Sequence record: OR845807.1
Length of the DNA stretch: 1,601 bases
Source of the DNA: Escherichia phage ECO95 1-6-1
Strand: one strand, 5' to 3'
In this document: positions 1 to 1,601 of the stretch, one piece after another
Layout of the letters: each line of letters opens with the position of its first letter
Position numbering within the stretch: position 1 is the first letter of the stretch
Program-made: the position numbers and the translations under genes
Notes under the pieces: model-generated
Seen by the model: only the letters and a program-made list of their open reading frames with translations
What the model was told of the DNA's origin: nothing
Databases searched by the model: none

Positions 1-77
1 TTATCTGAGGCTTCAGGCAAAGACATTGACGGCGTTTTATGCGCGATTTCATCTATCGTCAGTGCATACTGGCGCAC
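1..77. other. Unidentified 77-bp left flank, possibly coding
   Basis: Open in plus frames 1 and 2 and in one minus frame (VRQYALTIDEIAHKTPSMSLPEASD, in frame with the chaperone fragment if the IS is removed). Too short to assign strand or product. Confidence 0.2.
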
Positions 78-102
78 TGAACCGCCCCGGGTTTCCTGGA
101 GA
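78..102 (-). repeat. Right terminal inverted repeat (IRR) of the IS, at the orfB-distal end
   Basis: Plus strand 78..102 is TGAACCGCCCCGGGTTTCCTGGAGA. The reverse complement of 1363..1387 is TGAACCGCCCCGGAAATCCTGGAGA. They match at 22 of 25 positions; the three mismatches are at IR positions 14-16. Confidence 0.8.
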
Positions 103-119
103 GTGTTTTATCTGTGAAC

Positions 120-1010
120 TCAGGCTGCCAGATCATCGTTTCCGATGGAAGCATAATAAGCTTTTTCTGCTTCTGCCGGAGGAGTATGGCCCAGCCTTCC
201 CAGCAATCGTCGATTGTTATACCAGTCCACCCACGTTAGTGTGGCCAGTTCCACTTCTGCACGGTTTTTCCAGCTCTTACGGTGTATTACCTCCGCTTTG
301 TAAAGACCATTGATGCTCTCAGCCATCGCGTTGTCATACGAGTCGCCTGTACTCCCTGTTGATGCCAGTAATCCGGCTTCTTTTAGTCGCTCCGTATAGG
401 CCAGTGACACATACTGAGAGCCTTTATCGCTGTGATGGATGGTGCCAGACGGACGACGGGCCCACAACGCCTGCTCCAGCGCATCCAGCACGAATGTCGT
501 TTCCATAGACGATGAGACCCGCCACCCCACGATGTATCCGGCAAACACATCAATGATAAACGCCACATAGACGAAGCCCTGCCATGTGCTGACGTAAGTA
601 AAATCAGCCACCCACAGCTGGTCAGGTCGTTCTGCCACGAACTGACGGTTTACGCGGTCGCCTGCGGCAACGGCTTTCCGGCTGATGGTCGTACGGACCT
701 TTTTACCCCGGAGAACACCGGCAAGTCCCATAACCGCCATGAGACGTGCCACTGTACATCTGGCCACCCTGATTCCTTCCCGTAACAACTGACGCCAGAC
801 TTTACGCACACCGTACACCTGATGATTTTCATCGTATACGCGCTGTATCTCTCTCTTCAGCCAGTCGTCGTGCTGCGCACGGGCACTGCGTTTATCCGGA
901 TGATGTCGCTGTTGCTGACAATGGTAATACGTTGACGGGGCAATATGCAGTTCGCTGCATACCGGTCCGACCCCGTACTGCTCACGCAGCTTATCCAGCA
1001 GTGGCATCAT
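120..1010 (-). CDS. IS3-family transposase OrfB (296 aa from first ATG), DDE/RNase H-fold catalytic domain; probably also made as an OrfAB fusion by -1 frameshifting
   Basis: ORF of 296 aa in the -1 frame relative to orfA, with its ATG overlapping the orfA TGA (ATGA). Catalytic triad located by codon: D136 (603..605, in WVADFTYV), D195 (426..428, in HHSDKGSQY), E231 (318..320, in AESINGLYK), with K238 seven residues after the E. D-to-E spacing is 35 residues, the DD(35)E signature. Stop TGA at 122..120. Confidence 0.85.
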
Positions 1011-1015
1011 TTTTT
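1007..1015 (-). promoter_or_regulatory. orfA/orfB overlap: A6 run followed directly by the orfA TGA stop overlapping the orfB ATG; candidate -1 frameshift or translational-coupling site
   Basis: Minus-strand sequence CTC TGG AAA AAA TGA TGC in the orfA frame. The A6 run is at plus 1010..1015 and the stop at 1007..1009. The orfB ATG (1010..1008) overlaps the stop as ATGA. The -1 frame is open for 21 codons upstream, back to a TAA at 1076..1074. The canonical IS3-family A AAA AAG heptamer is not present. Confidence 0.5.
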
Positions 1016-1333
1016 CCAGAGGCGGTCGAACTCCGCCTTCGCAAAATAAGCGGAAGCCTGGCGAAGGATATCGTTACTGCGGCGCAGTTCACGATTTTCA
1101 CGTTCCAGCTCTTTCAGACGCTGACGTTCAGCGCTGGTGAGCCCACCATCACCGCCCCCGGTATCCCGCTCATGCTGGCGAACCCAGACACGCAGAGTCT
1201 CCGGCGTACAGCCAATCTTTGGGGCAATGGAACAAATTGCCGCCCACTGTGAGTCATATTCATCCTGACTTTCCAGAACCATACGAATCGCCCGCTGACG
1301 GACTTCGGGGGAAAAACGAGTATTTTTAGTCAT
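1007..1333 (-). CDS. IS3-family transposase OrfA (108 aa): N-terminal helix-turn-helix DNA-binding region and C-terminal leucine-zipper-like region
   Basis: ORF of 108 aa from ATG (minus strand, 1333..1331) to TGA (1009..1007). A Shine-Dalgarno-like AAGAGG sits 8 nt upstream of the ATG. The C-terminal segment [25 protein letters not shown] has the heptad Leu/Ile spacing typical of IS3-family OrfA. Sequence resembles IS629/IS1203 OrfA from memory. Confidence 0.85.
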
Positions 1334-1341
1334 CCTGTTTA

Positions 1342-1347
1342 CCTCTT
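1342..1347 (-). promoter_or_regulatory. Shine-Dalgarno sequence for orfA
   Basis: Minus-strand AAGAGG (reverse complement of plus 1342..1347 CCTCTT), 8 nt upstream of the orfA ATG at 1333..1331. Confidence 0.55.
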
Positions 1348-1362
1348 TCTCAGGGAGTTTAG

Positions 1363-1387
1363 TCTCCAGGATTTCCGGGGCGGTTCA
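1363..1387 (-). repeat. Left terminal inverted repeat (IRL) of the IS, upstream of orfA
   Basis: Reverse complement of 1363..1387 is TGAACCGCCCCGGAAATCCTGGAGA, matching 78..102 at 22/25. It starts with the TG terminus typical of IS3-family ends and lies about 30 nt upstream of the orfA ATG. Confidence 0.8.
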
Positions 1388-1601
1388 GTTGACGGTCACT
1401 AAATGGATCTGCGCACCGGGAGCGACACTGATGCCAGAGGGTAGTGTCCATTCAGTTGTGCTTTGAGGAGCAATCATTACCGAATTCGCGAGGGGGACTT
1501 TTTTACCATTATTAAGCAGTTCAGCGGCGCGAATTGTGACGTAATAGCCCGTGGGATTCGTCACTTCAATGCGGTTCTGTTTTACCTGGTAAGTCAGGTT
1601 T
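1388..1601 (-). CDS. Probable PapD-like periplasmic fimbrial chaperone, C-terminal domain fragment; 5' part lies beyond the window and the 3' end is truncated by the IS (likely a pseudogene)
   Basis: The only frame open across the whole flank is minus-strand, codons from 1600 down to 1388 (71 codons): NLTYQVKQNRIEVTNPTGYYVTIRAAELLNNGKKVPLANSVMIAPQSTTEWTLPSGISVAPGAQIHLVTVN. The NPTGYY motif, the downstream hydrophobic/Pro pattern and the VTVN ending resemble the NPTPYY...INDYG pattern of chaperone C-terminal domains such as FimC and PapD (from memory). The next codon is the TGA of the IS terminus (1387..1385). Confidence 0.55.

Follow-up and report, generated by a model that had tools for sequence, protein, structure and literature searches.

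IS629, an insertion sequence (IS) of the IS3 family, is the main small-scale diversifier of Escherichia coli O157:H7 genomes. Its target-site duplications are 3-4 bp long, and copies without a duplication are a known mark of IS-mediated recombination or deletion. In four O157:H7 genomes, duplications were present at only 21 of 47 IS629 sites, the other 26 being without them (Rump et al., PMC3271280). Excision of IS629 promoted by the IS-excision enhancer (IEE) and genomic deletions are among the events described in PMC9943667. On a larger scale, the Stx2c prophage is a primary boundary of the large inversions and duplications of O157:H7 chromosomes, some of which were observed within single cultures (Fitzgerald et al. 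2021, PMC8743559). Here we analyze a stretch of 1,601 nucleotides (hereafter, the window) from the sequence record of Escherichia phage ECO95 1-6-1 (OR845807.1), which carries a complete IS629 lacking a target-site duplication. Comparison with 5,426 complete E. coli genomes indicates that this copy is probably a hybrid, produced by homologous recombination between two ordinary IS629 insertions, one located in the tail tape-measure gene of an Stx2c prophage and the other in the fimbrial chaperone gene ECs_1279.

Termini of the element and the missing target-site duplication

The element, identified as IS629/IS1203 by its near-identity to annotated copies, occupies positions 78..1387 of the window (1310 bp, minus strand). 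The original prediction, made from the letters of the window, held that no duplication surrounds it, and this was borne out: the flanking triplets are CAC (75..77) and GTT (1388..1390), the 4-mers are GCAC and GTTG, and a shift of the ends to 76 and 1389 gives CGC and TGA, i.e., no direct repeat of 3 or 4 bp is present with the ends at 78 and 1387, and none with the shifted ends either. A duplication of 3-4 bp, being the mark of a simple insertion and not of the identity of the element, is thus missing from this copy. Unrelated flanks match at 3 bp by chance in 1 of 64 cases, so that non-contiguous flanks would be expected to lack a repeat, as is the case here.

The ends themselves were fixed by alignment with 11 other IS copies representing nine different flank pairs. 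All 11 start and stop at the same bases, and the sequence diverges directly outside, where gtt, cgc, agg, gat and aac are found on the left and gtt, cgc, agg, gat, tac, ttg, gca and tcc on the right. As the copies share their ends and differ beyond them, the termini of the element are 78 and 1387; the alignment, proposed earlier as a check, confirmed these positions and brought out no identical 3-4 bp repeats on the two sides. The neighboring bases AC and GT do lengthen the inverted repeat to arms of 27 nt (76-102 and 1363-1389), so that the symmetry pointed out in the original prediction is there, but it is fortuitous, and the multi-copy comparison rules out 76 and 1389 as the true ends. The GT belongs to the GTT duplication of the chaperone insertion, and the AC represents the CGC duplication of the tape-measure insertion with a private G-to-A change at position 76 (both described below). 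Among the distinct flank pairs in our set, five have a duplication (GTT, CGC, AGG, GAT and GAA, the last belonging to a diverged IS3-family element) and five, including that of the window, have none.

Origins of the two flanks

The left flank (1..77, minus strand; flank a1) comes from the 3'-proximal part of a tail tape-measure gene of a lambdoid phage, assigned by identity and with its reading frame checked. Over bases 1..75 it matches the tape-measure genes of 1142 genomes at 100% identity, with up to seven copies per genome, and the left junction with IS629 is present in seven genomes only, those of 7784, CV261, NZRM3614, Z1835, Z1836, AC-3 and AC-5. In all seven the interrupted gene is that of the Stx2c prophage adjoining dacD/sbmC, and in strain 7784 the stx2c A and B genes are present in the prophage around this IS copy. 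The insertion in 7784 reads CGC-IS-CGC, a perfect 3-bp duplication, and the unoccupied site of PV15-279 has a single CGC (ctggcgCGCagactcc). Positions 75..77 of the window are the left half of this duplication; where the empty site and all seven reference junctions read CGC, the window reads CAC. Across the left junction the window agrees with the tape-measure insertion at 148 of 150 bases, the two mismatches, A76 and G91, lying in the flank and in the IS, respectively.

The right flank (1388..1601, minus strand; flank b2) is a fragment of a PapD-type fimbrial chaperone gene, ECs_1279 of strain Sakai, as follows from identity, the Sakai annotation and the PapD_C domain. It comprises the upstream part of the gene, which is cut by the IS near its 3' end, and is 100% identical to a single-copy locus of O157:H7 and O55:H7 genomes; matches at no less than 90% identity were obtained in 378 genomes, in 308 of them at no less than 99%. 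An insertion at exactly this point, GTT-IS-GTT, is found in NZRM3614, AC-3 and AC-5, where the right junction (1310..1601 of the window) is identical at 292 of 292 bases, so that positions 1388..1390 are the right half of a GTT target-site duplication. In Sakai the site is unoccupied, with a single GTT (catagtcGTTgacgg), and the gene lies intact between the usher and pilin genes.

The original prediction was that the two flanks had not been contiguous before the insertion, and comparison with an IS-free locus was proposed as a check. The comparison supports this reading: one flank derives from a prophage tape-measure gene and the other from ECs_1279, and these loci lie at distant positions, 1.27-1.30 Mb apart in NZRM3614, AC-3 and 7784 and likewise wherever both could be located in a genome, rather than being neighbors across a 3-4 bp duplication.

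Other IS insertions were encountered at or near both loci. The fimbrial operon ECs_1277-1281 has received independent IS629 insertions, e.g., in ECP19-798 (locus L003, 4513..5822), where another site of the same chaperone gene is occupied with an AGG duplication, and usher or chaperone genes are disrupted by IS elements in NZRM4169, PNUSAE008512 and PNUSAE008406. ECP19-798 gave the best match to the window (100% over 78..1601) and was considered as the source lineage, but it was rejected, its IS629 being the independent one at the AGG site and the match consisting of two non-collinear pieces. An IS3-family element in a tape-measure gene of the chicken strain Z1323CEC0007, considered as an independent insertion at the same site, was also discarded, because the gene is a different one, the element is diverged and the duplication is GAA. 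The left flanks of several unrelated IS629 copies are alike over about 20 bp (e.g., tcagtgcatactggcgcac and tcagagtatattggcgat), and positions 55..77 of the window bear a weak likeness, about 14 of 19 bases, to the flanks in loci L005 (1501..1518) and L006 (1503..1523), into which the megablast alignments extended; this likeness could reflect a weak target preference or chance.

Occurrence and arrangement of the joint

The complete window was found in none of the 5,426 genomes, the best matches covering either 78..1601 or 1..1387. The exact junction pattern had no match in public genome, metagenome or viral contigs, and the open reading frame (ORF) at 26..313, which spans the joint, is not on record. 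Both putative parental copies occur together in NZRM3614, AC-3 and AC-5, all three of which belong to the seven genomes with the tape-measure junction. That every genome with the chaperone copy also holds the tape-measure copy places the source of the window in, or near, the sublineage of these three strains.

In NZRM3614 the tape-measure junction lies at 1,972,086-1,972,235 and the chaperone junction at 3,244,683-3,244,974, both on the minus strand; in AC-3 they lie at 3,234,274 and 1,961,586, respectively, both on the plus strand; and in 7784 the plus strand carries both the tape-measure copy (2,618,058) and the chaperone site (1,315,243), which is unoccupied there. The coincidence of strands means that the two IS copies are direct repeats, with the chaperone copy coming first in the orientation of the window. 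The interval between them extends from near rutG to beyond fliC and sbmC and, on the K-12 map, includes dif but excludes oriC. No reference genome was found in which the two loci are inverted relative to each other; CV261, which had seemed a candidate on account of an odd coordinate, is merely numbered from another start, having fliC at 3.33 Mb and the K-12 gene order.

Private bases at the left junction

The seven reference tape-measure junctions read GGCGCGC followed by TGAACCGCCCCGGT, while the window reads GGCGCAC followed by TGAACCGCCCCGGG. The A at position 76 is private to the window and changes Ala to Val in an already broken tape-measure gene. No tape-measure gene with this base was found in E. 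coli genomes or phage collections, and a natural allele with CAC as the original triplet was therefore rejected: E. coli offers none, and the phage matches to 1..80, which have one mismatch, carry G at 76 and T at 78. At position 91, all seven tape-measure copies and the chaperone copies at the GTT site have T, while the G of the window is found in many other IS629 copies. An IS629 that lies inside an IS600 near traT (locus L006, 1503..1537), and whose flank also ends with AC, has the same sequence as the window from position 76 on. A single conversion patch from a copy of this kind, extending two bases past the IS end, may account for both A76 and G91; an origin by two separate changes, or from a lineage not sampled here, is just as possible. 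Whichever of these applies, the conclusion on the hybrid nature of the element is unaffected.

Probable recombination between two IS629 copies and its alternatives

The explanation that we favor is that the element of the window is a product of homologous recombination between the two insertions described above, a mechanism which the original prediction had named as an example and which is supported by the finding that, in other genomes, both loci carry a separate IS629 flanked by a perfect 3-bp duplication. One parent would be the IS629 in the tape-measure gene of the Stx2c prophage, with its CGC duplication, and the other the IS629 near the 3' end of ECs_1279, with its GTT duplication; a crossover anywhere within the shared 1310 bp would generate an element with the tape-measure sequence on its left and the chaperone sequence on its right. 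As each side of such an element retains one half of a different duplication, no direct repeat is left. In the window, the sequence on either side of the IS is that of one side of a documented duplicated insertion, with the boundary at the same nucleotide, apart from the A76 change in the left flank and G91 in the IS; the two parents reside together in one genome in the three strains mentioned, and the flanks are apart in IS-free references.

With the parents arranged as direct repeats, a one-step exchange would yield a deletion product bearing a usher-IS-prophage joint; the joint of the window would be carried by the excised circle or would lie where the two units of a 1.27-Mb tandem duplication across the terminus meet. 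Neither a simple deletion nor a simple inversion yields the joint of the window. Alternatively, in a two-step process, an inversion mediated by prophages would flip the tape-measure copy, and a subsequent inversion between the IS copies would create the joint; the first inversion is plausible because the tape-measure copy resides in the Stx2c prophage, a frequent boundary of large inversions.

Several observations weigh against this explanation. Under the reference geometry a single exchange amounts to the terminus-spanning 1.27-Mb duplication, which is expected to be rare and unstable, and otherwise two steps are necessary. The internal polymorphisms of the element do not form a mosaic of the two parents, the G91 of the window being absent from both reference parents, which have T91. 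A76 and G91 together distinguish the window from all seven junctions, and a plain exchange between T91 parents is insufficient to produce them, so that the observed sequence requires either a further conversion or mutation or a lineage not sampled here. A fully specified scenario, in which the joint is real and exists in a close relative of NZRM3614, AC-3 and AC-5 as an IS629-bounded 1.27-Mb duplication of the terminus or as a double inversion (via the Stx2c prophage first and then via IS629), with A76 and G91 perhaps contributed by one conversion patch from the L006 copy with AC before TGAACC through heteroduplex repair two bases past the IS end, is in our opinion unlikely to hold in all its details.

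Among the other explanations, a misassembly is the main one, although it is less likely than recombination. In this case the strain would have two ordinary copies, and the tape-measure and chaperone flanks would have been joined via a collapsed multi-copy IS629 by the assembler, by the scaffolder or during circularization. The joint is absent from the complete genomes and from three other public collections, and, given the reference geometry, it is of the circle-closure type: a false circle made of the segment between direct IS copies gives exactly the order a1-IS-b2, whereas the true one-step product would be an unusual duplication of 1.27 Mb across the terminus. There are about 20 IS629 copies per genome, and at 1.3 kb the element is longer than short reads. 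Errors of a comparable kind do reach the databases, since in a public EDL933 assembly a 212-kb piece of the chromosome with this chaperone gene is labeled as a circular plasmid. On the other hand, the sequence is clean, having no indels, and its 214-bp right flank and IS are identical to reference copies; A76 and G91 are situated within 16 bp of the junction, where spanning reads should fix them, which argues for a real and distinct left junction; and closed long-read genomes contain many hybrid IS629 copies. While the two parental insertions, their coexistence in three genomes and the distance between the loci are observed, recombination rather than misassembly as the origin of the joint is inferred, as is the type of rearrangement. 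As to the EDL933 'plasmid' itself (NZ_CP124742.1, 212 kb), it contains rutEFG and an ECs_1279-type chaperone gene and is probably a mislabeled chromosomal segment, or else an excised or amplified one; we considered it as a circle closed by IS629 and rejected this, as its closure lies in prophage sequence and not in an IS.

Far less probable is a joining driven by the transposase or by IEE, in which the orfA-proximal end of the tape-measure copy was linked to a new target in ECs_1279 where no IS had been before. Two other new sequences adjoin the same end of this copy: in NZRM3614 and AC-3 it abuts DNA upstream of cII, and in CV261 the interior of a TraR/DksA gene. Both of these joinings resemble nested one-sided deletions. 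However, the junction of the window (IS-GTTgacgg) falls at the same nucleotide as the insertion with the GTT duplication in three genomes that also have the tape-measure copy, and a second, independent hit on that very base would be improbable. Nor does the direction fit a deletion: the chaperone flank is located 1.27 Mb behind flank a1, and the arc to be deleted would be about 4.1 Mb long and, on the K-12 map, would include oriC. An IS-adjacent deletion, named in the original prediction as another example, is not supported: such a deletion implies a new flank without a prior IS and removal of the intervening DNA, whereas here the right flank starts at a known IS junction and the joint is a backward jump. 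Finally, a simple insertion whose duplication is hidden, either because the real ends are 76 and 1389, with AC and GT inside a 27-nt terminal inverted repeat, or because the duplication has decayed by mutation, has virtually no chance of being correct, as every other copy begins with TGAACC and finishes with GGTTCA between unrelated bases and the flanks map to loci 1.27-1.30 Mb apart and not to one site.

Coding content of the element

The element itself is complete, and the expected parts of an IS629/IS1203 were recognized in it. Its ends are those of other IS629 copies (TGAACC...GGTTCA, i.e., TG...CA), with imperfect terminal inverted repeats of 25 bp at 78..102 (the orfB-distal end, holding the G91 polymorphism) and 1363..1387 (the orfA-proximal end). 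Two consecutive, overlapping genes are encoded on the minus strand: orfA (1007..1333; 108 aa), with an HTH_Tnp_1 domain (PF01527, E = 2.4e-12), and orfB (120..1010; 296 aa), with an HTH_21 domain and an rve integrase core of the DDE type (PF00665, E = 9e-28). The second gene is expressed as an OrfAB fusion through programmed -1 frameshifting, a programmed frameshift being noted in the PGAP annotation of identical copies, and an ALIL frameshift-stimulating pseudoknot RNA (Rfam RF01497) was detected on the minus strand at 936..1052 with 121.5 bits against a gathering score of 50. The 1310 bp are identical (1310/1310) to the copies in ECP19-798 (L003), strain 319 (L005), L006 and strain 350 (L007), and differ from the tape-measure and chaperone copies by the single base at position 91. 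PGAP labels the homologous copies, from which the window IS differs by 0-1 bases, as 'IS3-like element IS1203 family transposase'. Membership in IS629/IS1203 is therefore supported by size and ends, by the two-ORF frameshift layout with the pseudoknot and by near-identity to annotated copies.

Comparison with known IS629 copies and rearrangements

Taken together, these data identify the IS of the window as a further instance of a type of IS-mediated rearrangement that is already known and common in E. coli O157:H7, although a misjoin is possible. Its importance beyond the strain is small. Should the joint be real, it would serve as a structural marker of the strain and would mean that rearrangements of the terminus half of the chromosome can be brought about by a pair of 1.3-kb IS elements and not only by prophages of more than 5 kb; if an artifact, it signals a misjoin in the source assembly. 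In practice, a missing duplication is a quick and reliable sign that an IS copy lies at a breakpoint, be it of a rearrangement or of an assembly.

Further IS629 copies without a duplication were observed in the course of the comparison. The tape-measure copy has a foreign right flank and no duplication in CV261 (L004, 4078..5387), NZRM3614 (L008, 6078..7387) and AC-3 (L009, 6078..7387); all three keep the left flank, and beyond the element NZRM3614 and AC-3 continue into cII and CV261 into a TraR/DksA fragment. The presence of a prophage remnant at sbcB in CV261 was reported previously (PMC7175801). In strain 7784 (L020) the intervening approximately 30 kb, with tail, head, lysis, stx2c, Q and replication genes, are retained, and nested one-sided deletions beside the tape-measure IS appear to have removed stx2c from NZRM3614, AC-3 and CV261. 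The Stx2c prophage of 7784 contains a second IS629 (L020, 40498..41711), which interrupts a serine/threonine phosphatase gene adjoining Q and is oriented opposite to the tape-measure copy, forming an inverted pair within one prophage. Another hybrid occurs in strain 350 (L007, 1519..2828), where the left flank is that of the GAT copy near traT in strain 319 (L005), the right flank lies in pgaA, and there is no duplication.

Compared with the IS629/IS1203 copies of O157:H7, the window IS has the same size, ends, repeats, ORFs, frameshift and pseudoknot, and differs in lacking a 3-bp duplication, as do 26 of the 47 published sites. It resembles the hybrids of CV261, NZRM3614 and AC-3 in its left flank and left junction site, in having a foreign right flank and in lacking a duplication. 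In these hybrids, however, the new right flank comes from within the same prophage and the bases at the left junction are G76 and T91, whereas the window has A76 and G91 and continues, at a known IS junction, into a chromosomal fimbrial gene 1.27 Mb away. With the rearrangements described by Fitzgerald et al. (2021, PMC8743559) the joint shares the involvement of dispersed long repeats around the terminus and of the Stx2c prophage as a frequent boundary; those rearrangements have prophage homologies of more than 5 kb at their boundaries, while that of the window would have a pair of IS629 copies of 1.3 kb.

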